Of a stretch of 32,000 nucleotides of DNA, positions 16,385 through 29,900 are shown piece by piece. The notes beneath the pieces are model-generated. The model was not told where the DNA came from, made no database searches, and worked only from the letters and a program-made list of their open reading frames with translations. Within the stretch, counting starts at the first letter, position 1, and the number at the start of each line of letters is the position of its first letter. Source of the DNA: Chlamydiota bacterium (GTDB lineage Bacteria > Auribacterota > JACPWU01); contig JACPWU010000003.1 in the NCBI GenBank assembly GCA_016196885.1, positions 1 through 32,000 of the forward strand. Reading direction: 5' to 3'. The translations under genes were made by a program, and so were the position numbers.

Positions 16385-17930
16385 ATGAAGATGGTTAATT
16401 CTTTTTTAAAACGTGTGATTTCTTCCATTACTCTCCTGGCCTTTTTGTGTATGGATGAGGGGTCTCTTTTTGCGTCTACGCTTGCACCTCAAACTCATGT
16501 GACTGACGTCCCTTTGCAACTTTCATCTGATATTTTTATCCCCAAAGAATTGGCAAGTGTGGTGGAGAAATATGAGGCTTTGGGGGCTCATCATACTGTG
16601 ATTCTCTTTCAGGATGTTCATGCCCAAAGAGAGGCTCAGAAAAGTTCGGCGGCGACCCTGGATTATTTAGCTCAAAAATATGGATTACGCTTGGTAGGCA
16701 TGGAAGCTGCCTCGGGAGCCGTGGACGTGGCGTCTTTTAGAGATTTTCGGGATAAGAATATTCTAAAGAATGTAACAGAAAAATATCTGGGTCGGGGAGA
16801 GCTTTCAGGGGCTGAGTTTCAGGCGATCAATGGGGCGCAAACCTTTGAGCTTTACGGGATTGAAAATCTTGAAGCCTACCTTAAGAATTATCATGCCTAT
16901 AGAGATTCTTTTGCCTTACGTCAAGAGCTGAAGGAAAAAATTCAGGGCTTAAAAGATTTTCTTTCTCGCATTCAAGAGTATGTTTATTCCTCAAGCGTTC
17001 AGGCCTTTGCCAAGAAATTTCAGGATTATGGAGAGCATAAAATTAATTTGGAAAAATTTATTCCTTTTTTAATGAGCGAGGCCCAAAACGCTGGGGTTCG
17101 TTCAGACTCTTCATCGTTATTAACTTTGTATTTGAAAGTTCTAGACGCTAAAAAGAAAGTAGATTTTAAAGCCCTTCACGACGAAATGGCCCAGCTTCTC
17201 GTTTCCCTGCAAGGTAAGGTAGATGAAGACGAGCTCTCCAAATTCTTAGAACTCACGTTGACTTATCGGCTGAATGAGATCTCGCCTTTAGAATTTTATC
17301 AAACAGTTAAAAGATTGATGGATAACTCACGACTCACGACACACGACTCACAACTGCCTTATCCCAACATTCAGCATTACATGGAATACCTAGAACTGGA
17401 TTTGCAGGTAAATGATTTGCGCCTGTTTGATGAGATTCGGTCTTTGAGTGAAAAAGTTTTGATTGCCAAGTGCCAAACTGATGAAGAAAAGCTTTTGTGT
17501 CGTTATGAGATGTTTGTGAGCATGCTCACACGGGTAGCCGATTTAGCTCTTTCCAAGTCTGAATATGCAACTTATGTTGCCGGTCACGGAAAATTAATTC
17601 CAGAGATGATTCATTTTATTCGCAAAGAGGCGGATGAGTATTTGATGGATCAAAATCTAGAAGCATTGAACTATCCCTTTGAAGAAAAGCTTTCAAAGGT
17701 TGAGACCTATTATCAAGCGGCTTTGGAGAGAGATGAAGAAATGAAAGCGCGTTTGATAGATCGCCTGAAAAATGAAAAGAGCGAAGTGAGTGCCCTTATC
17801 GCCGGAGGTTTTCATACGCAAAGCCTGACTCAGGCGCTTAAAGATGCAGGCTATTCTTATCAGGTGGTGATTCCCACTTTTGATGCAACGAAACCCGATC
17901 ATTATCAAGATGTGATGATGGGGAAAAAGA
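16385..17930 (+). other. N-terminal module paralogous to 1710-3330.
   Basis: See the alignment blocks listed for 1710-3330. By eye, roughly half of the residues are identical across the conserved blocks. Confidence 0.7.
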
Positions 17931-20900
17931 CCCCGTTTGAAAAGTGGCTGTATGACAATGTCATACAGCTAACTCCCCCTACCCCTCTTACTTTAAGAGG
18001 GGAGAAAAACACGGATGTTCATTTCGAAGTGAGCGGGGGAAGAGGCCGCGTCAGCAATCGAAGTTTTCTGACAAAGGGTGCATCTCATGTCACGCGCGAC
18101 GGGCTCTTGATGACACCTTCCATGCTCGTTCGATATGGGGATGAAGAGGTTGATGCTCAAGGATATCTTCGAGAATTGTGTATGCACTTAGAGATGTTGG
18201 CAGGTTTAATCAAAGCCCGTTTCACAGACGAGGGAGAAGCGCTTGATCTAGAACGCTTGAGAAGCGATTTAGCTTTTTCTTCCCCCTCTTCCGAAAGTCT
18301 CGTATTCCCCTCCCTTGATGGGAGGGGTAAGGGGAGGGTGGTCTCAAATCCTCCCCCTAATTTAAGTTCATCCTCTTCTTCCCCCTCTAATTTAAGTTCA
18401 TCCTCTTTTTCCCCCCTTAATTTAAGGGGGGCTAGGGGGGTTATTCACCCTTTAGCTATCCTCGACTTCACTCACCTTAGCCTACGCACAAGTGGAGCAT
18501 CAAGACAAATCCTCGTCCCCATCAGAAATTCTAATCGTGTCCTTGTTCTGGATCCTGCTGGATTTATTGTAGAAGAGAATGGAGATTTTAAGGGGCTGGC
18601 GGTGGAGCTTTTAACGCAATTGAAGTCGCGCATTTTTAGACGAAGATCAGCCGTTTTAGGTCTAGGCCTTTTGGGGCTTATTGCGGTGAATGTGGTTCGA
18701 GCCGAGGGGTTGCCGTCGGCTCCTCCTTCCGGAACAGTGCAAAAGATAGGTGGGGAATCGGAAGGAGCTGCTGATCAACTGGTAAATGAGAGAGCTGATC
18801 TGGCTAAAATTGAGCGAATCCTTCGTGCAACTGGACTGAAACAAAGTGATTATGATTCTGCGATATCCAAGCTTAGGGATTTAGTTAACAATCATTCTGA
18901 AATCATTACTGCTTCAACATTAGATGCTCTTTTAAGCATGCCCCCGGATGTGTTGAAAAAAACTGATTCTCCATATTTCACAGAGTTTTTTAAAAATATC
19001 CTTCAGCGTAGACAAGATTTTGCGAATGAAGCTCTCCTTCAGAAACTTCTCTCCAATTATGATAAAGGTCTGAATGAGAAAAAAGTGGAAGAAGAACCTT
19101 ATTTAGAAGTTGATATTCGGAGCATGTGGGCCTATACGATTCATATTTTAGGGGAGATAAAACCTGATTTGATTGTGGACGGGACGCTGCCCTATTTTAT
19201 GAAATCTATACCGCCCTCTGTTTTAGGGAGTGGTTTTGTTCAGAGACAATTTTATTTCAGTCCTGCTTTTACCCGTCTTACTGAAAATAGGTCCGATGAA
19301 GTTAAATATTCTTTGTCGCTTTCGGCCTACTTATTTTTAACACGGGGAGGCTACCCCTTGAATGAAAACAATATCGAAAAGATGGTTCAATTTTTGATTG
19401 AGAAACGCGAGAGAATGGCTGAGGATGTTGTTCTAGGCCCAGCACACACGGTCATTGGTGTGGTCAACAACACAGTAGGGGCGGGCGCAGAATATGTTAT
19501 AGAAAATCTTGCAGGTTGGGCAAAGGTCCCCCATAACTCAGTTCATTCTTTTCGCGTAAGTCCTTTGTGGTGGGATTTAATTTCAACTAAAATGTGGCTT
19601 GCCAATCAAATTATTAAAAATCAGGGCCCGCTCTTTGTAAATCTTTATTTTCATGGGAATGATCATGAATTGGAGGTGGGTGTTTATGAGGGGCTCTTGG
19701 GTGGCGTGAAAGCCGTCTATTTGACAGACCAGGAATTAGCTGAGGCCTTAAAGGCAAGGGAGAAAAGTGGCAAAAGAGTGGATGAGGTTGTCTTTTTTTT
19801 AAATGCCTGCGAAGGGCGTTTTGGTGCAAATTTAGAAATGGATCTCTCTCGTTTAGGGGTGAAAACATATCCCAAGATATTGCAAGCGGCTCATTATGAC
19901 TCTTTTGCTTCATCGGGTGTTTTTTCTGTTCCCTTTCATGAAATCAGTGTGAAGCATCCAGATATTGATGGTTTGAAAGTCAAATATGTTTATGAGGCAG
20001 CAGAATATGCTTTTCAACAGGGAGAAGATTATTTATTCCTTGTCTCCGTTCCTGAAGCGGATGTTGATAGATTAAAAGCTTCTTTAACGCAAGATCCTGT
20101 CCCTGCGTCCTCTGTTACATTACCCTTTTTCCCTACGGTACCACCGGCTCTTCCTGACGGTGTCATTGAACTAGGTTCTCTGGTTTTACCCTCGGTTAAA
20201 TCCACTCCTACTCAGACGACAAGCCTCGCCTCCAGAATTTCCAGTCCCCTAGGTATGGCCCTTCTTTCTCAACCCCTCATTCTACTTCTAACCACTTTGC
20301 CTGCGGCGGCAAGAGGGCTTGGAGAGGGAATTTTCAAAGATGGAAGTTTTATGACATCTCTTTCGCCTCTGGAGATTTTCCTTTCCTGGTGGCCGCTTGT
20401 TATTTTGGGTGGCTCTATAGGAGCGGTGATGTTTTACCGATATTACCGTCCCCAATTAAAAGAGATTTCTGAACGTGTTGGCAGGTGGAAGAGTCAACTC
20501 ACATTTGGATCGCCATTAGCAGATCTCGGAAAATGTGTCACAGCGGACACCCTGTTGCCAATCTTGAGAAAGCGAGGGGCTATAGGTTTGGATCTGGGAG
20601 AAAAAGAAGAGACTGAACTGTATTATTCAGAAGTCATCCCGATCGTCCAAGTCCGTTCTGGCGATTATGTCTATTCTCTCAATGAAGGCACGGGCCAGGT
20701 TGAGCCTCATCGCATTGTGGGACTCCTCGATATGGGGATTAAGCCCGTGTTTAAGCTTACGACTGAGAGCGGTAGAAGCATCAAGACGACAGCGAATCAT
20801 CCTTATTTAAAGAAGTTAGGGGCTGAGGGCTGGGGGCTGGGGGCAAAAAATAAGTTAGGGGCTGGAAGATCGAATCAGGTAGATACCGCGCGGGATCATT

Positions 20901-23900
20901 TTTTACACTTGAGAGAGCAAACGGAAGTATTCCGCCCGCGAGATACTGGCAACTTTCAGATTGTTCAAGATGATAAAGACGGGAATGGCCTTGTAGCGTG
21001 GAATGACCAGAGGACGAAGTGTGCCTGGCTTTGTATAAATCCTGTGATCCCCTTCTTCTCGGGAGAGCTGAAATCCAGCCCGTTCGAAGACACGGCAGAG
21101 CACTTGATAGGAAATAGGTGTGATTTTAGAATACATGTGGACGCATCAGAGAGCGACCTGACTATGTTCAGTGACGATCAGGGGAGGCGCGATCCATTCT
21201 TTTCTGGAAGAATCTTTCTCTATGAATCCATCTTCACGGAGAATATCCTCAAGGGTGCCCATGCGTTTGCTTTCCTCGAGGAAAAGTCTGACGGCTTCCT
21301 TGCCTCTTTCCCTGGCTTCGTCCACGCTATCCCCGCAACTGGTGACAGAAAGCTCAGGGCAAAAGCTAACGTAGGTCTTCCCCTCTTTAAACACCAGCAA
21401 AGTGAAATCAAGTCTCATCATGGATCCATTGTAGCACACCCTTCTGAGAAAATAAAACGCCAAAGTAGAAGGATCAAGACGACAGCAAATCATCCGTATC
21501 TTAATAAAATGGATCGTGGATCGTGGATTCTGGATTGTGTCTCTACGTATTTTCCATCATCCATCATCCATCATCCATCATCCTTTTCAAAGTGGACCAA
21601 AGTCAGCGCTCTTCAGGTGGGCGATGAGATTGCGGTGTCCAAAGAAAAATTACCTTCTTCGATAAGCGTCCTCTCGAGCGTCAACGCCATCAATGATAAT
21701 TTTTGCGAATTCAATGTAAAAGAGAATGCGATATTTACCGAATTTGGAAGTCACTCAAACATCCTCTGGGACCCCATTGTCTCCATTGAGTCAGTGGGTT
21801 TTGAGCATGTCTACGATATTGAAGTAGAGGGGACGCATAATTTTGTTGGAAATGGAATTTTTGCACATAATACGGCGATATTCGCAACCCCCACCCCACA
21901 GACCCTAAGCCAGGCAACGAGCAATATTGTGGGTGAAAAACTTTTGGATGAATTTGAGAAGTTAAATGGGGATAGGCCTCTTCAAGAAATTTCTATTTCT
22001 GAAAAATCGGGTCAAGTGCTTGAACCGTTAAGACAAGCTTTAGAGGGACATGAGGATGCCAAGTACATGATGGTTCGCATCGATGTTGAACTTTCACAAG
22101 GGGTGGTTAATCATGTCATCGTTATAGATACCGTAGAAAACTTGCGAAGGGATGTTTTGCAGTTGACCCAAGGTTCTCTTGATCTAGCCCGCATTTCTCA
22201 TCACATTTCTGCTGCGAGTGCCAATTCTGCCTCGTCTGCGTCGTCAGACTCGGTCGGCCACGCTCAACATATTGCAAAGTATGCCTCGCATGGCCTCGGT
22301 CGTCTTCCTCGCATCCAAGGCAGACCTGACGCTCTCGCGACGAAATCTGATGAGAAATGCGGGCTAGAAGGTTTTGAGTTTATTCTCAATTACAGCGAGC
22401 ATGGAGCGAGGGAAGAACAAGGTGTTGGAGAAACTTTGGTGTTCTTGCATAACATAACGCTGGGCACGTCTGGACAGTCTCTTCTGCGTGGACGAGGTCT
22501 GATGTCGAGTGTCATTTCTCAGTGGGCACGGTATTTGGCTGAGTCAACGTTGAGTGGTAGACTCACCTTGGCCACCGATGCAAAACATCCAGCCACCATC
22601 TCTTTATTTAAAAAACATTTTCTTGCGCATGCGCCCTCTGATCTTGAGAAAATAAGTTTGAAAGACCGTTTTAAAGTGGATGTTGAATACACCACTGTTC
22701 ATCCCTTGTTTGGAAGTTTACCCATTGGTCTTCGTGACGCGCAACGTCCAGTGAAGATTAAATCGCTGGGAGAAATTAAATTAGTTAATGGGACTTATGA
22801 AGTGGAAATTCCTTCTGGGGTGCTTCCAGAAAATCAGGAGGGAAGGATTGTTACTGAAATCAATGAAACCTTAAGAGATGTTTCTGATTGGCTCAAGCAA
22901 TCCACCCTGTCTCGAATTTCAGGTTTTCGTATGCCTGAAACTTTAGACTTAAGTGTGGCAAGTTTTTTTGAAAGTTTAGCGGGTTCAACACCCGAGCGTG
23001 GAGAACAAAGGGCGGGTCTTATTTTGGCTCGAGAGCTTTTAGCGATTCAAGATCCTCAAGGAAGAAGGCAGTTGATGCGTCTTGCGATTCTTCACGAGTT
23101 AGCTAGCTTGATTTGGCCTTCATTGATATGGCCCGAGCATAGGAGAGGCCGCTCAGGCGATATTTTAATGGAGGTAGATGCGCATTATCTTGCAGACATG
23201 ATGTCCGGTGAGAGTGGTGACGCATCTATTCAAGCGATTCATGGAGTTCTTTCATCCTATGCTGAAGGACAAACGATTGTACGGGACCGTGTCTATGCCT
23301 CAAAAAATCCCATTGATGTGGCGATTTACGATTATTATCAATTTACACAGTTGGTGAGGGAGTTTCGAAGTCAAATCATTTCAAATCAACCTGTTCCAGA
23401 ATTAATCAGTTATGCGCGTTTCATGACCTCACGTCGTAAAGATATGGATGCCAGATCCGTGGTGGACGAGCGGGTAGAGAGAATTAAGACGGGTCAGAAT
23501 CTTTCCTCCGATGATCCCTCTCGAATTAAAGATCGCTTGAATGCACTGGTTCGTGAGCTAGAGTCGGATGATGCATTGGCCTTGTTAGACAGAAAACTTG
23601 AGGTGGGAGATGATGTGGTCAATTTCTATTGGCGGGGGACAGGCGATGAGGAAACGATAGGGTTGAAACAGGCTAATGATGAAATATGGGGATATGGTTT
23701 AACCAATCAATTGATCAGTGTGGTACAGAAAGGTGCTTTGACGCTCATGGAGGAGAGTGGGCTCGTAGAGCTCACCCTAGAGACAGATGATAAAGGTGTG
23801 CTTCATATCAAAAACGGCAGAGACTTGATTCGAAAAAATTATAAATCTACTGTTTTTCGTGTTGCGCAAGATCGCAGGGTTGGAGATTATGAATTGAGAT

Positions 23901-26900
23901 TAGGAAATATACAACTTCAGTTAAACGATGCACTCAATCGCTATGTGCGAGGGGAGGAAACAGCTCTTTTAGGTAAGCCTGATGAAGCGATTGTAAGTCG
24001 CTTCCATCAAAGTGTTCGCGATCCTAAGAAGAAAATTCAAATTGATTTTGGAATAGGGACCGTTCGTGGCGGAGATTTAAGATCCAAGGTGGAAGCCGAC
24101 TCCGAAGCGATTAAAGCCGCGATTATGGCGCATCACAGTGAAGCAAGAAGATTTGATCAGGAGACGTTCGAAGCGGGTATTGAAGAAGCTGTAAAAATTA
24201 AGAATATTTTGATAGAGGCACGGTTTTCTCTTTTTACAGCTTCAGGTGAACTTGATTCAGACACGTTTGATCATTTAAGGAAGTGGGAAAAGTTTGAAAA
24301 ATCTCAGCATGATACTTGGAGTGGAGTTCTTGGTCAATCCTCCATGACGTTGACTGATGTCCAGAGTTCCGTTTCAGAGGGAATGAGCTACCCAGAATTT
24401 CTTGAATCGAGAAACGCATCGGGATTATTGCAAAACCATTTGCTTCGGAAACTTTATCATTATCATTTGGCCAAGCACTTTTTTGAGTGGGTAGGGATTG
24501 TAGATTATATTAAAGAGTGGCAGAGTGATGCATTAAAGGCACAAGAGAGATCTCGACAGGTAAATGACGCTTTGAAGTACATTCAGGAAAATCGCTCTGA
24601 ATATGAAAAGATTATTGGAAAATTATCTGAAGGAGTTCCATCCCTCGAAACCCATGAAGCGTCTTTACGAGAGAGTATGGAAGAAAAGATTCGTTTAGCT
24701 CAAAGCCTTCTTTCCTCCGATCGAAAAATTCCCGGGTGTACCTCCAGAAGAGTTTTTGACGCTCGGGCGTTTAGCCATTCAGAAAAAGGAATGGTTTTTA
24801 TCAATTTGGATGTGAAAGGCATGGGGCGGGAGAACTTTAAGGATTTTCTGAAGCGTGTAGAGAAAATTCATGAACTGATTCAACAGAAGAAATCAAATCC
24901 TTCCCTGACAGAGACAGTCAATGAGCAAATTCTCTCCCAGACATTGATTGCAGGGGATACGGTCACAGAAAATTTTGTTAAAGTTGGGAAAAAGGCAGTG
25001 GGTGTGATAGCAGAGCGATTAAAAGAGAGGCCAGATTTATTGAATCAAATGGGAATTTTCTTAAATTCCGATGGTTCTATTGATGAAGAAAAGACCTTAA
25101 ACTTGGTTGAAGTGGGCGGCGATGAACTGACGTTTGCGATTCCCCAAGAGGCTCTTCAATTGATTGGAGAAGAGGGCCTTTCTCAGATTCAAGTTGAGGC
25201 GGGCACGCGAATGATGGTGAGTCCCGTGGAAAAGGAAAGAGTAGATCGTCGAGACGAGGTTAATTACGGATTGGCAATTGCAAAGCTTGATGAGGGAACA
25301 GCCTTGGCAAAAGAGTTGGAGGCGCTTGGATTTAAGGATTTTTTTGTCCGACGTCTTTTTGATGAGACAACTAAAGAATATTTCTGGAAGGCTTTTTTTA
25401 GAAATGCCGAAGGGAATATTGAAGAACGTGAAATGGGTTGGAGGCCTGACATGGCTCGAGGAGATGTGGGACATGGAATGCTTGCCATGAGACCCTACCA
25501 GATCACACGATTTCAGGAGCATCTTCGATCTCCTCGGACGCCGATGTTTGATGCAGCTCAATATCTTAAAGGGCTTCTCTCTGATTCAGGTTACTCAAGC
25601 TCGGTTGTGTCTCTTTCTTCCGAAGATTTTCGTTCGTTGATGATGGAAATAGAAAATGGAATTTTTCAGGCGGGTTACTTTGTCCCTGGTTTTGATTTTG
25701 GGGATGAAGATAGGCTTAGGCAGTTGAAATCTTTAAAGAGCGAAGTTGTGAGAGTACGGGGCGTGAATAGAAATCTCCCTCCTGAAGGGGTTGAGGTTAA
25801 AAATATAGAAGCTGCCATAGATCAATTGGTGAATGACATTGTCCAACACCCTGAAGTTAACCTGCTTATTATTACCGGTGTTCCCGGTGCTGGGAAAGGC
25901 GTATTTTCAAAAGCATTAAGACAAAGACTTGAATCGACACTACAATCAATAGGCTCAGATAGAACAGTTCAATTAATCGAGCGAGATAAATGTTTTAGTC
26001 CTTCCGGTGGATGGTATCGTGCAGAAGAGGAATATGATCCAGACACGATTTATGATGTGGAAGGACCCGTGTTTGCTGGGGAAATGATAGAAGAGTTTAG
26101 AACTCACATGGTCAATGGGGTTCCTCCGCTTCGAGCTGAACAAATTCGAAGAATTGGCATTTTTGCTCCCATCGATCAAATTCGCGGCCAATTGGCAGAG
26201 CGCGGTCGTACCTTAGAAGTAGACCATACAACGGATGTACAACTTGCGGCCGAACTTGACACCCGTTTCGATTATTGGTACTTCGGCGAGGATTTTTCGA
26301 AATATACTCTCATGGTAGATAATACCAGAGCCTCTGGATCGACAGGCGAAAGTGGACATGAAGGGGGGTCAGGGGCAGAGACCCTGGGTGAGACCCTCTC
26401 GAGAGGTATCCCCACTGAAACCGTGGCCGGCGCGCATCCGGTGAGTACGCCTCAAAACCGAGGAGCGAGTTCCAAACTTAATTTGTCGGCTTCTACCCCC
26501 GCCATTCCTAAAGAGGCGCGTCACGGCAAACCAGGCAAAGAACCTCAAAAAGGTTTTGCCATGATAGAAACCTTTGTTCGGGCTCTTTCGGGTGGAAGCG
26601 CTGTGATGTTTTTTGTTTTTCTAGGCTGCTTTGGTTCTGCGTTATCTGTCTTGGTTGGTGGAAGAAGTAATATGCCTACAAATACCAATATTGAGGATAT
26701 CACCTTTCAAAACCGAGGAGCGAGTTCCAAACGAGGATCTATCAGTCTTGATGAGAGAGGAGGGGTCAGACCCTTAACACGCACAACGACAATCGGACGA
26801 TTGGGTTCACGCTCATGGCTGAATCTGGCCAATGCCATACTCTCTTTGTTATATTCAGGGTTGTCTTCGATTTGGAAGACGATCAATGCCTCATTCGGCA

Positions 26901-29900
26901 CTTTTCCAGCCAATTTGTCGTCACTCAACATGAGTTTACTCCACTCTGTCGTAAGTTCTATGGTCTTGTGGGTAAAGCTCTCTTCACGCATCATAATTCA
27001 TCCGCTCCTTAATGTATCGGTCTCGGTAGAGGCGCCAGTTGATTTTAAGATCTTGTTCAGCAATCGTCAGGGCTTCGTTCAAGTCAACCAACCCCATGGG
27101 CGTTTTTTCGACGGCACGGCCAGGCCGGTACAGGTCACGATGGGCGAAATCGTGCGCCGTGTCATAACGAACGATTGGCTCCCAACCGTTCCCACTCCAA
27201 TACTCCAATTGTACCACAAATTCCACGACTTGCTTTCCAAATCGCTGGTGCCAATGTCTCAATCGGCAATCCCTGGGCAAGAGGTCGACCACGAAGCTGC
27301 GAATCTGAGCCATCCGCTAAGTCTATCGCATGCCCCAGGATATGTCAATGAGGCCGGGCGAGATCTATTGACTTCCACTTCCACCAAAGCCGCGGGCGGG
27401 ACACATCCTCTTTCTTCAAACAGAGTCACCGAAATTTTGGGCAAGATGAAGGAAAGGGGAATTCAAGGACGGGTGATCGCCAGAGATGATTCTCGCTTTA
27501 AGGGCATCGAATCTAAAACGGATGATTTCTTAAGACCTTTAGGTCTTGCAGGTGAAGGAAACAAAGGCTTGGAAAGCATGACGGTTTTTGACGAGGTGGA
27601 TTTGTCTTACACCTCGACGGATGGAACCGAAGTGCATGTGAGCCTCAAGAAAGGCGATTCTGTTTTCACAGTGACAGAGACCCAAAAGGGAGAATCTCGA
27701 ACGACCCAAATCGTTGCTTTTAGAGATGATGAAGGCGGCGTTTATACAACAGCAAGATTTTGGGATCAAGCGTCTGACGAGGCTTGGGTCGAGCTCTGTG
27801 TTCATGAAATCAGCGAAGTCAATGCGAAGACGAACCAGAAAATTATTTCTGCGCTTAATCAAATTCAAGTGGATTCCACGGGTCCCGATGCTCGAGTCGA
27901 GTTTTTTAAGCGATTTTATGTTTCTCTAACAATTCAAAACAATCAGATCACGAGTCTTAAATCTTCTAATGAATCCGATCCGGCTCACGTTCTAGCTGAG
28001 TTTCTGGAGGTGGTCAGGACGTTACAAGTTTTGAGGCAACCCATCACGACAGAAAATGTATTAAGGACGGTCAGCGTTTTGGATCAGAATATAGGAGGCC
28101 TGTCTCAAGGTTTGTCTAAAAATCCTCTTGTGGGACAAGAGCCTACCCATCGGTTTTCAAATTCGAATGCAGAGTTTGTTGATTCAGAGAAGTTGAAGAG
28201 ATTAAGAGGATTGGCGGAACTCTTTTATGAGGCTTATACAGATGCTTTTGAAGCCAATAGACTGAGTCAGGGTGAAGCCAAGTGGACCGAAAAGGATATC
28301 TTCATTACAGATCCGCTCACGAATCAAAAAATGACCATTCAGGATCTTGAAAATATTGAACTTCAATTAAGCGTTGGAGAAAAGAAAACAGAGGCTATTC
28401 AAGGAGAATATCGTCCCTATAGAAGACGCATTGCTAATCTTAAAGGTGTTAAACGTTTAAGTCTCCAAGATGCTTATGGTCCCATGCTTAGAAAAGTTCA
28501 ATCAGAGTTAAGTCAGGGTAAGCAATCTGTGGTTTTGCGCATTGGAGGACGAAGTGGCACCGGCAAAACAAGTATTGCGGATGAGATGGGTAAGTGGGGA
28601 CTGGGCCCTATTTTACCATCAGAAATTTCTGTCTTGCATGCGGATGATTTAGTTGGTTTTGACTCTATGCGGCTTGCTGTTGAGGTCGAGAAGAAAAAGG
28701 GAAAGAAGTTGATTATTTTAGAGGGAACTTATTCATTGCGTGGGAGAGAAATGATTTTTGAAGAGAATGCTCCTGAAATAGAAGCGGACGTTCAAGTTTT
28801 TGTGGAATTACACGAAGATACCCGCGTTCAGCGTCTTTTTGAGAGAGCTCATTTTCGTGATAGATCCTGGATTGCCTATATGGATCGAGTGATCAAGGAT
28901 CGAGAGGATATTCTTCGGGTTGCAAGCAGATACTTGCCTGAGTCCTTAGAAAAAAGGATTGTGGATACAGTCCAACAGGTAGATGGAGAAAAAAATGTTG
29001 CAAAGGCAGGTGGGTATTATAAAGCTGCAAAGAAACTACTCTTAGAACATCTTTTAGCTGTTAGAACACAAGGTGCAAACTCGATGTTTGATTTTGCGAG
29101 AGTAGAAAATCTAATCGATCGCTATACCATTGATCAGGAACGAAGAACAGCGGACATTATTATCAAAAATGATCAGTATAATACCGGATTAGGTGTTCTT
29201 GCTGACAATCAAAGCCTCATTTTTAGAGACTCTTTGAAGCGACTTTCCAGTTTACTTCCTTCAATACAGAAAAATAAAGATGAGATTGTGACCCTTATCA
29301 TCACACTTGTTAGAGATTTTTCAAGCAACCCTATCATTTTAGGAATAGAAGACTTGTTTCAACAAGAAGGCACGACACAAAGACTTACAACAATGAAAAC
29401 AGATCCATTAAGGAAATGGGTAGAAAAATTCTTAATTTTACCTGCTCATGTTTCTCAGCTCTCAAGGTTGGTAAGAACCAGCTTAAGAGAGACCTCTCGA
29501 AATCCCAGCTTTCTCCACTCTACCCTGGGCGATAAGCCTAGAGATGAGGTGAAGCGATGGATTGATCAAAATGCTGACTTCGTAGAGCGATATGCTCCCA
29601 TCAGGCGCGGCTTGTCACAATTTATGCGCCGTTATTCTTTGGGTGCTGCGAATATATTGGGTGGCTTAAGTGTGGGTTTCTCAAGAGAGACGTGGTATCG
29701 AATTTTTGCGATTGGGTTTGTGGGATCTTTGATCAGTGGGATGGCCGCATTTGTTTTATCTCTTTCTTCAGATCGACTTGGCTTTGCAATATTGTCAGGT
29801 CTTGCGATCACTTTATTAACCTCAGTTGTTGTAGATGATATGGCCATGAGTTTTGCAGAGGCACATTATGTAGTAACGAGTGAGAATTATTTGGCAGGAA

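Follow-up and report, generated by a model that had tools for sequence, protein, structure and literature searches.

Inteins of the PI-SceI/VMA1 type carry a homing endonuclease as selfish cargo in a loop of the Hint domain, are spliced out of the host protein, and are maintained in populations by this cargo. Toxin-antitoxin (TA) modules are themselves cargo of plasmids, chromosomal integron cassettes and the integrative and conjugative element (ICE) SXT (mosAT). They are also carried by Tn3-family transposons (PMC7157771). We analysed a 32,000-nt stretch of DNA (hereafter the window) from a Chlamydiota bacterium that GTDB places in the Auribacterota (assembly GCA_016196885.1, contig JACPWU010000003.1, positions 1 to 32,000, forward strand), in which a hicB-hicA TA operon lies on the minus strand within an intein, and the intein within a giant open reading frame (ORF) of the plus strand that stays open across the whole operon. 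The explanation that we propose, and which we consider rather probable from the sequence and the predicted structures, is that of a selfish, self-expressed hicB-hicA cassette that the host ribosome can read through, placed in a permissive surface loop of the intein so that the resulting peptide would be spliced out, with the TA pair stabilising the intein in return. We call such a cassette ORF-transparent, meaning that its coding strand has been cleared of the codons TTA, CTA and TCA, which leaves the complement without stops.

As in the endonuclease inteins, the cargo would be selfish, occupy the Hint loop, leave the host protein with the spliced intein and maintain the intein in populations. 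In contrast to them, the cargo is here a two-gene operon of the opposite strand with its own promoter, and the peptide encoded in the host frame is meaningless read-through. Furthermore, an RNase TA pair can stabilise but cannot home, and it is found between block B and N4, whereas the endonucleases are found between N4 and block F. With the TA-bearing mobile elements the locus shares a type II TA pair inside the element, thought to penalise loss, as well as a modular organisation and a slot that several TA families share. The TA genes of those elements, however, occupy non-coding or dedicated space, whereas the operon described here is wholly antisense within a translated ORF, and its codon usage is shaped by keeping the other strand open. 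Compared with canonical HicAB (E. coli; Burkholderia pseudomallei, structure 6g26), the adjacent hicB-hicA order, the HicA resembling a double-stranded RNA-binding domain (dsRBD) with a conserved His, and the N-terminal partial RNase-H-like fold of HicB are the same. HicB, in contrast, has only 91 residues and a single domain, like T. thermophilus TTHA1756 (2yzt), without a ribbon-helix-helix (RHH) or helix-turn-helix (HTH) domain. The two genes share one frame with 9 nt between them, and neither contains TTA, CTA or TCA codons.

Two further comparisons concern overlapping genes. Sequence entanglement has been engineered in STALEMATE, by overlap with an intein-containing meganuclease (PMC12455656), and, as cited in that work, by Blazejewski et al. 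(2019). There, as proposed here, an immunity or toxin function overlaps another gene, and indels and insertions strike both, which buffers against loss; the synthetic overlaps, however, are engineered, on the same strand (+2) and between two functional proteins, whereas the present one is natural and antisense, with one frame that is merely open. Embedded antisense overlapping genes have also been proposed in E. coli (bioRxiv 10.1101/2020.11.18.388249), with coding potential likewise on both strands of a locus. Those genes are short, belong to no family and are debated, whereas the genes described here belong to known families under clear purifying selection, and the openness of the other strand is supported both statistically and comparatively. 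In the literature covered, which included Omnitrophota giant-gene preprints and had subscription-only papers outside its coverage, we found no TA modules in inteins and no antisense operons nested in giant genes; the novelty of an antisense TA operon in an intein is provisional.

A frame scan delimits the host gene (giant ORF 2) to positions 16370..31999 of the plus strand, in plus frame 2, where it runs without a stop through 5,210 codons and continues past the end of the window. The sole Pfam domain recovered in it is the intein, a class-1 mini-intein at 20534..21871 (+), which has 446 codons with its insert and matches Intein_splicing with an E value of 1.3e-20. Its translation begins with Cys1 at 20534 (CVTADTLLPIL) and continues with the first copy of block B, TTANHPYL (20786-20809, with TTANH at 20786-20800), the N4 strands WTKVSALQVGDEIAV (21587-21643), which match the hidden Markov model (HMM) of the mid-part and are modelled with a predicted local distance difference test score (pLDDT) of about 95, and blocks F/G, ILWDPIVSIE...VYDIEVEGTHNFVGNGIFAHN (21758..21871; C-part HMM, E = 3.3e-26). 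The extein residue Thr+1 follows at 21872-21874 (GIFAHN/T at 21854-21874). The features of a class 1 intein are all present (Cys1, TxxH in block B, block F, the terminal His-Asn and Thr+1), with no stop in frame, and Pfam found no LAGLIDADG, HNH or other endonuclease domain in either the 446-aa intein or the 231-aa read-through peptide.

The AlphaFold model of the 446-aa intein, based on a 34-sequence alignment, is confident for the Hint fold at residues 1-100, 347-377 (N4) and 401-446, with parts above 90, and has a pLDDT below 50 at residues 101-346, which comprise the insert, the second copy of block B and the native linker. The predicted fold is consistent with a splicing-competent domain that bears a long disordered loop, although it falls short of proof. 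In the native linker between block B and N4 the 14-mer TCCATCATCCATCA is repeated perfectly in tandem (21553-21580), encoding ...SSIIHHPSS.... No close orthologue of giant ORF 2 was recovered, either with or without the insert. Rfam and tRNA scans over the whole window gave no match, so that the region is not explained by a known RNA element.

The insert comprises 693 nt, or 231 codons in frame (20810..21502, +), as given by the spacing of a direct repeat that duplicates block B. A preliminary description of this DNA, made from its letters alone, had reported an insert of this length directly after block B, and our analysis reproduces it. The imperfect repeat of 38 nt that it gave as the boundary is also present, with a length of 43 nt instead (copies at 20772..20814 and 21465..21507, +; 37/43 identities, 86%; spacing exactly 693 nt). 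The same description had placed the TA module at the usual site of a homing endonuclease, which proved incorrect: the insert is found in the loop between block B (N3) and N4, and the canonical endonuclease site extends from N4 to block F. The first copy of the repeat carries the block B used in the predicted Hint fold (residues 85-92, pLDDT above 90), and the second carries another TTANHPYL (21479-21502), which is left out of that fold, with a low pLDDT around residues 316-323. Within IKTTANHPYL the two copies differ at four nucleotides, all of them synonymous, which suggests that block B stayed functional in both as they diverged. The repeat may have originated from two paralogous inteins recombining, or from integration via homology. 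A target-site duplication left by a transposase is an unlikely origin of the 43-nt repeat, because the corresponding duplications in the relatives described below differ in length, from 28 to 111 nt, and because the two copies of block B differ only synonymously in the conserved motif. The plus-strand read-through peptide (KKLGAEGWGLGAK...RRIKTTANHPYL) has no Pfam match along its 231 aa, and is predicted to be disordered.

On the minus strand the insert carries hicB (21146..21421) and, 9 nt downstream in the same minus frame, hicA (20903..21136), both ORFs being confirmed as first described. HicA, the 77-aa toxin, matches Pfam HicA_toxin (PF07927) with an E value of 8.6e-9 and a score of 35.8 bits, against a cut-off of 27, over positions 4-56 of the 58 in the profile. 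Its segment EGDHRIYTKPG aligns with kGgHRlYthP of structure 1whz, keeping G-x-H-R-x-Y, and the motif GDHRIYTKPG is conserved in all close homologues. The protein is 64-73% identical to the HicA proteins of the close clade, with 0.21-0.26 nonsynonymous differences per site (pN) versus about 0.8 synonymous ones (pS). The 91-aa product of hicB is 57-72% identical to proteins from Omnitrophota metagenome-assembled genomes (MAGs) that NCBI names HicB family antitoxin. Its AlphaFold model (pLDDT 93.8) consists of one domain with the partial RNase-H-like fold of the HicB N-terminus and a short tail, and the top fold matches in the PDB are 6g26 (a HicAB complex), 2yzt and 6g1c, with a probability of 0.97-0.99. 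Judging from these identities and from the model, the protein is a HicB antitoxin of the short single-domain type, as in 2yzt. Across the homologues of HicA and HicB, pN is 0.16-0.26 per site and pS is saturated at 0.7-0.9, a large gap that shows purifying selection on both proteins.

An extended -10 promoter element, TGCTACAAT, can be read at 21428-21436 (-), 6 nt before the hicB ATG. In an alignment of four homologous operons (L080-L083) a GTGnTAyAnT box is kept 6-12 nt before the hicB ATG, which suggests that the cassette carries its own promoter, as had been claimed at the outset, and points to a leaderless or near-leaderless message. A generic two-hexamer sigma-70 scan did not flag this promoter, and a terminator scan found no intrinsic terminator 3' of hicA. 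Beyond the hicA stop (20809-20864) the plus strand is very G-rich (GGGGCTGAGGGCTGGGGGCTGGGGGC), resembles a G-quadruplex and contains a 17-nt repeat (AAAGAAGTTAGGGGCTG / AAATAAGTTAGGGGCTG). The hicBA transcript is C-rich and unstructured over this segment, which could be a Rho-type termination region or the end of the cassette. HicA, HicB and the DUF7718/DUF5647 pair described below had no match in NCBIfam or PADLOC, and a tblastn search with HicB gave none in plasmid and phage collections.

To evaluate the open host frame, we compared the codons of the cassette with those of the host genes. Both hic genes are codon-aligned with the plus frame, as 20903-16370 and 21146-16370 are each divisible by 3, and in this alignment any TTA, CTA or TCA on the minus strand is a stop in the plus frame. 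The two genes contain 18 Leu and 14 Ser codons, and TTA, CTA and TCA are absent from all 32. In the host genes TTA accounts for 20.5% and CTA for 4.8% of Leu, and TCA for 15.4% of Ser. The probability of finding none of the three among 32 Leu/Ser codons is 5e-4 if codons are drawn according to host usage, 1e-3 if the third-position composition of the cassette itself is applied, and 7e-3 in the most conservative model, which retains the TTR/CTN/TCN/AGY split. The 48 codons of the insert that belong to neither hic gene were open in 7.4% of shuffles, and the whole insert was open in 0/5000 dinucleotide shuffles. Across the insert the other two plus frames contain 14 and 17 stops, versus none in the host frame. 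These results support the conclusion that selection maintains the open giant frame. They also bear out the preliminary description in its account of an uninterrupted plus frame codon-aligned with the cassette and in its count of 32 Leu/Ser codons without any of the three triplets, of which TTA and TCA are common in the host.

It could be argued that the giant ORF is split or a pseudogene, that its open frame is accidental or misassembled, and that the minus-strand ORFs are spurious. The evidence does consist of assembled sequence, and neither HicA nor HicB has an identical entry in a gene-position index built from 153 billion gene calls or in a collection of 15 billion proteins. The latter, however, is to be expected and is probably due to gene callers, which drop genes nested in longer ORFs. 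Moreover, no shuffled sequence was open, HicA and HicB have strong family and structure matches, all the catalytic blocks of the intein are intact, and the same architecture is found again in dozens of MAGs and metagenomes that are independent and come from separate studies. We consider an artefact of this kind extremely improbable, and effectively refuted already.

The homologous operons provide a natural control, for which we used the DNA of the nearest HicB relatives (L080-L083) and a metagenome scan with the HicB alignment, which gave 80 loci. TTA, CTA and TCA are all absent from the operons of the window and L080-L083 (5/5) and from 9/11 metagenome operons with a HicB at least 60% identical to that of the window, or 14/16 for the close clade overall. 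Among more distant operons the same is true for only 3/56, with a mean of 3.3 such codons per operon, and for 3/24 of those matched in third-position GC content (GC3). The difference is significant in Fisher's test for close versus distant operons (p = 2e-10), for close versus GC3-matched distant operons (p = 3e-6), and with near-duplicates collapsed (p = 1e-5). Local codon usage predicts 1.8-6.9 of these codons per operon in L080-L083. Because the synonymous sites of the clade are saturated (pS of 0.7-0.9, with pN of 0.16-0.26), the stop-free state must be actively maintained. It is also present in free-standing members, namely L081, which is flanked by a response regulator on one side and other genes on the other, L082, which is part of a HepT/MNT island, and L098. 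Other members are antisense in long ORFs, of at least 2,343 codons in L086 and at least 542 in L080, where the ORF reaches the contig end; in L129 just a hicB remnant is left, antisense within an ORF that spans 1,854 codons or more. From this distribution, stop avoidance appears to be a maintained trait of the cassette lineage, which would thus have been pre-adapted. Adaptation solely after insertion is rejected, as the free-standing members are stop-free too. Intein HMMs run on both strands of 86 hicBA loci gave a single match (L097), out of frame with the cassette, and most close hicBA copies are thus outside this intein family.

In two of these loci, where the giant ORFs are on the minus strand (L086, 1241-8269; L129, 2609-8170), a motif [G/A/S]-A-R-L-A is found every 100-400 aa, with variable codons. 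The nested hicBA cassette is located between two such motifs, which might be processing sites that release the junk peptide in an intein-like manner.

The control bears directly on the main rival explanation, according to which an ordinary selfish TA module landed where insertion is harmless, only in-frame, stop-free antisense insertions survive, and the intein gains no stabilising benefit. The enrichment in inteins would then reflect tolerance and co-propagation with intein copies, rather than function. Survivorship of insertions alone, however, does not account for the persistence of the stop-free state in a clade saturated at synonymous sites, or for its retention in free-standing members. 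In addition, toxin and antitoxin are under purifying selection, hence doing something, and TA modules are known to stabilise other mobile elements (PMC7157771). We regard this explanation as improbable, though one to be taken seriously, and return to the observations in its favour below.

The architecture is not restricted to the window, and its relatives considerably strengthen the interpretation. The first relatives of the intein had long and odd inserts, and in two of them minus-strand pairs of DUF433 and DUF5615 (PIN-like) genes leave the intein frame open. Scanning GTDB genomes with the de-inserted intein alignment gave 77 loci, mainly from MAGs of Omnitrophota and Patescibacteria (the MAG and metagenome contigs used in the comparisons are fragmentary). 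In 72/77 the N-part and C-part are in one frame, with no stop from block B to block F, and 27 of these 72 intact inteins, counting the window and one near-identical pair, contain antisense TA-type genes. Pfam identified DUF433 in 18/18 and DUF5615 in 16/16 of the respective nested genes, a ParE toxin in 7/10 together with one Gp49/RelE-like protein, HicA in two and DUF5647 in one. A second, unrelated hicAB (HicA, E = 1e-18) adjoins a DUF433/DUF5615 pair in L024, and L019, L040 and L052 also hold two modules each. Along the 27 inserts (24,162 nt) the host frame has no stops, whereas the two remaining frames have 446 and 598. The 59 nested genes are related to the host frame as rel0 (codon-aligned) in 36 cases and as rel2 in 23, and never as rel1. 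The use of rel0 and rel2 only, the two relations that make it easiest to avoid stops, is expected under stop avoidance: every offending codon in the aligned frame has a synonym, and by our own reasoning Phe followed by any codon starting with A would make an unavoidable stop in rel1. Both strands are therefore constrained, as the preliminary description had proposed: on the minus strand pN is much lower than pS, and the plus strand is stop-free by the codon probabilities, the shuffles, and the clade and family counts.

Besides the TA-type genes, at least a dozen further inteins have on the minus strand a gene for a small protein with two transmembrane (TM) segments, which is the second commonest antisense cargo. 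The proteins of this family have 66-85 aa and a motif FIAK..DLGK....GLASYFF.(K/E)F, with no Pfam match. They are encoded, in a list that is not exhaustive, at L003 4768-4968, L020 2711-2911, L021 1816-2046, L036 802-1023, L042 4537-4749, L064 673-873 and L001 2427-2684. The Ser/Pro-rich antisense ORFs of cluster 6 (L070-L077) were left out of the count; they resemble spurious complements of a genuine plus-strand domain.

In most relatives the cassette is found after N4, at the classical endonuclease site. The loop between block B and N4 accepts inserts as well, which are antisense cassettes in L031, L040 and L056, as in the window, and sense-encoded NYN domains in other relatives. The latter are NYN/LabA-like PIN-fold nuclease domains (PF01936), encoded in frame between block B and N4 in P0027, P0030 and P0055, in the position that a homing endonuclease would take. 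Other loci, too, have duplicated host segments around or between the cassettes, with every spacing a multiple of 3: 579 nt in L036 (594-704 and 1173-1283; 111 nt, 92%), 774 nt in L019 (49 nt, 94%), 711 nt in L052 (79 nt, 91%) and 729 nt in L001 (a 28-nt palindromic repeat). In the two-cassette inteins (L036, L019, L052 and L040) a piece of the intein, either block B with N4 or N4 alone, is duplicated between the cassettes (49-111 nt, 91-94%), and L052 and L040 resemble tandem duplications of a unit formed by intein piece and cassette.

Giant ORF 2 itself contains a second antisense cassette, at 26707..27313 (-), over which the host frame is again open. It comprises genes for DUF7718 (26984..27313, -; Pfam E = 6.9e-32) and DUF5647 (26707..26994, -; E = 3.4e-13), which overlap by 11 nt and have the frame relations rel0 and rel2. 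Pfam recognised no intein domain near 26707-27313, and DUF5647 is also found antisense within the intein of L007. At its 3' end the nested DUF5647 gene coincides with the second copy of a perfect 26-nt direct repeat (26452-26477 and 26707-26732, 255 nt apart), which suggests that sequence next to this cassette was duplicated or inserted recently. In L001, from an Omnitrophota MAG (JACPAX010000075.1, 1-3239), one open plus frame has three antisense cassettes: hicAB in the N-extein (255-813), within a 729-nt insert flanked by the 28-nt palindromic repeat GCCARAGGGGTCAGACCCCYCTGGCACC, DUF5615/DUF433 in the intein (1397-1976), and the small TM gene mentioned above (2427-2684) in the C-extein. The repeat GCCARAGGGGTCAGACCCCYCTGGCACC recurs near the other two cassettes.

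In the mechanism that we propose, the host ribosome would translate the 231 meaningless codons as a disordered loop, around which the Hint domain would fold using the first copy of block B. Protein splicing would then remove the intein together with the junk peptide, leaving the mature giant protein unaffected. On the other strand, the extended -10 promoter would drive a leaderless hicB-hicA transcript, with HicA as an RNase toxin and HicB as a labile antitoxin, so that a cell deleting the intein or the cassette would be poisoned (post-segregational killing). The antisense placement is required because a sense cassette would introduce its own stops into the host frame. Since the DNA is shared, indels that inactivate the toxin would also frameshift the giant gene, in what would be a natural sequence entanglement, and the TA module would replace the homing endonuclease as the device that retains the intein in the genome. 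Addiction is inferred here from family membership; the purifying selection on both proteins is consistent with it, though not specific to it.

Several points weigh against this proposal. The transcription and toxicity of the operon, the splicing competence of the intein and the stabilising effect are all deduced from sequence. HicB scores below the cut-off of Pfam HicB_lk_antitox (PF15919; E = 0.0046, 17.5 bits, cut-off 27), although the 72% identity and the fold support its assignment as HicB. The missing C-terminal RHH/HTH DNA-binding domain leaves autoregulation by HicB in doubt and, because there is no intrinsic terminator after hicA, antisense transcription may continue into the intein, with effects of its own. 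Judged by family and site there are at least about eight independent captures, far below 27, and many of the 27 cassettes probably descend from few captures and spread with their intein. The density of the cassette families is about 24-fold higher in intein DNA than in the extein DNA of the same ORFs, a figure that has to be read knowing that these families were ascertained mainly in inteins. Some copies also seem to decay, as indicated by L080, the closest relative (72% HicB identity), where the nested hicA (about 2400-2640) has an in-frame stop (..PCY*AIPVF..) and is either a decaying toxin gene or the product of a sequencing error. Finally, antisense cassettes are present in giant ORFs without an intein (L086, L129, L080 and 26707-27313 of the window). 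Cassettes can thus be tolerated without an intein, which makes it less likely that the TA module serves the intein: inteins are the preferred harbour, but not the only one.

Part of this evidence is what would be expected of a passenger without benefit to its host element. The same kinds of cassette are found in giant ORFs outside inteins, and the cargo is mixed, including DUF433/DUF5615, ParE-type, HicAB, DUF5647 and small membrane proteins. The broken hicA of L080 and the double cassettes, which resemble products of recombination or duplication, point in the same direction.

A function at the level of the host has also to be considered. The antisense transcription could regulate the giant gene, by interference or through an RNA duplex, as the preliminary description had suggested, or HicAB could serve in stress response or phage defence, with its position being incidental. 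The two transcription units are convergent, with no intrinsic terminator 3' of hicA, and beyond it the plus strand is G-rich and the minus transcript correspondingly C-rich, which would be compatible with such a role. However, the same slot holds unrelated TA families and small membrane proteins in relatives, as expected of interchangeable selfish cargo but not of a finely adjusted regulator, PADLOC found no defence system, and close homologues are free-standing beside unrelated genes. We consider a host-level function quite unlikely. We favour instead stabilisation combined with a safe harbour, and found nothing that specifically supports regulation.

More generally, the data raise the prospect of an unrecognised class of ORF-transparent cassettes (TA operons and possibly genes for small membrane proteins) that colonise genes in antisense, preferring the mini-inteins of Omnitrophota, Patescibacteria and neighbouring phyla, as well as tolerant stretches of giant proteins. 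In these cassettes the TA module would take over the persistence role of the endonuclease, entanglement would protect the toxin gene, and gene callers would hide the whole layer. At present the case for this class seems to us evenly balanced. If the proposal is correct, inteins can harbour cargo on their opposite strand, and addiction can maintain them in place of homing, which would offer an answer to the old puzzle of how mini-inteins without an endonuclease persist. Coding sequences would then be a new niche for TA modules, made accessible by codon-level adaptation, and the locus would be the clearest natural case in bacteria of a long antisense overlap with both strands demonstrably constrained, and a natural counterpart of the entanglement designs used for biocontainment in synthetic biology. 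Part of the length of giant genes in Omnitrophota and the Candidate Phyla Radiation (CPR) would be parasitic DNA that is read through. Gene calling would hide such nested operons, making the TA and defence inventories for these phyla underestimates.

In addition, we identified an ORF of 132 aa for a retropepsin-like aspartyl protease (15507-15905, -; Asp_protease_2, E = 7e-7) between the two giant ORFs of the window. Similar protease genes are found in L002, beside PIN and DUF5678 genes and next to an intein-bearing gene.

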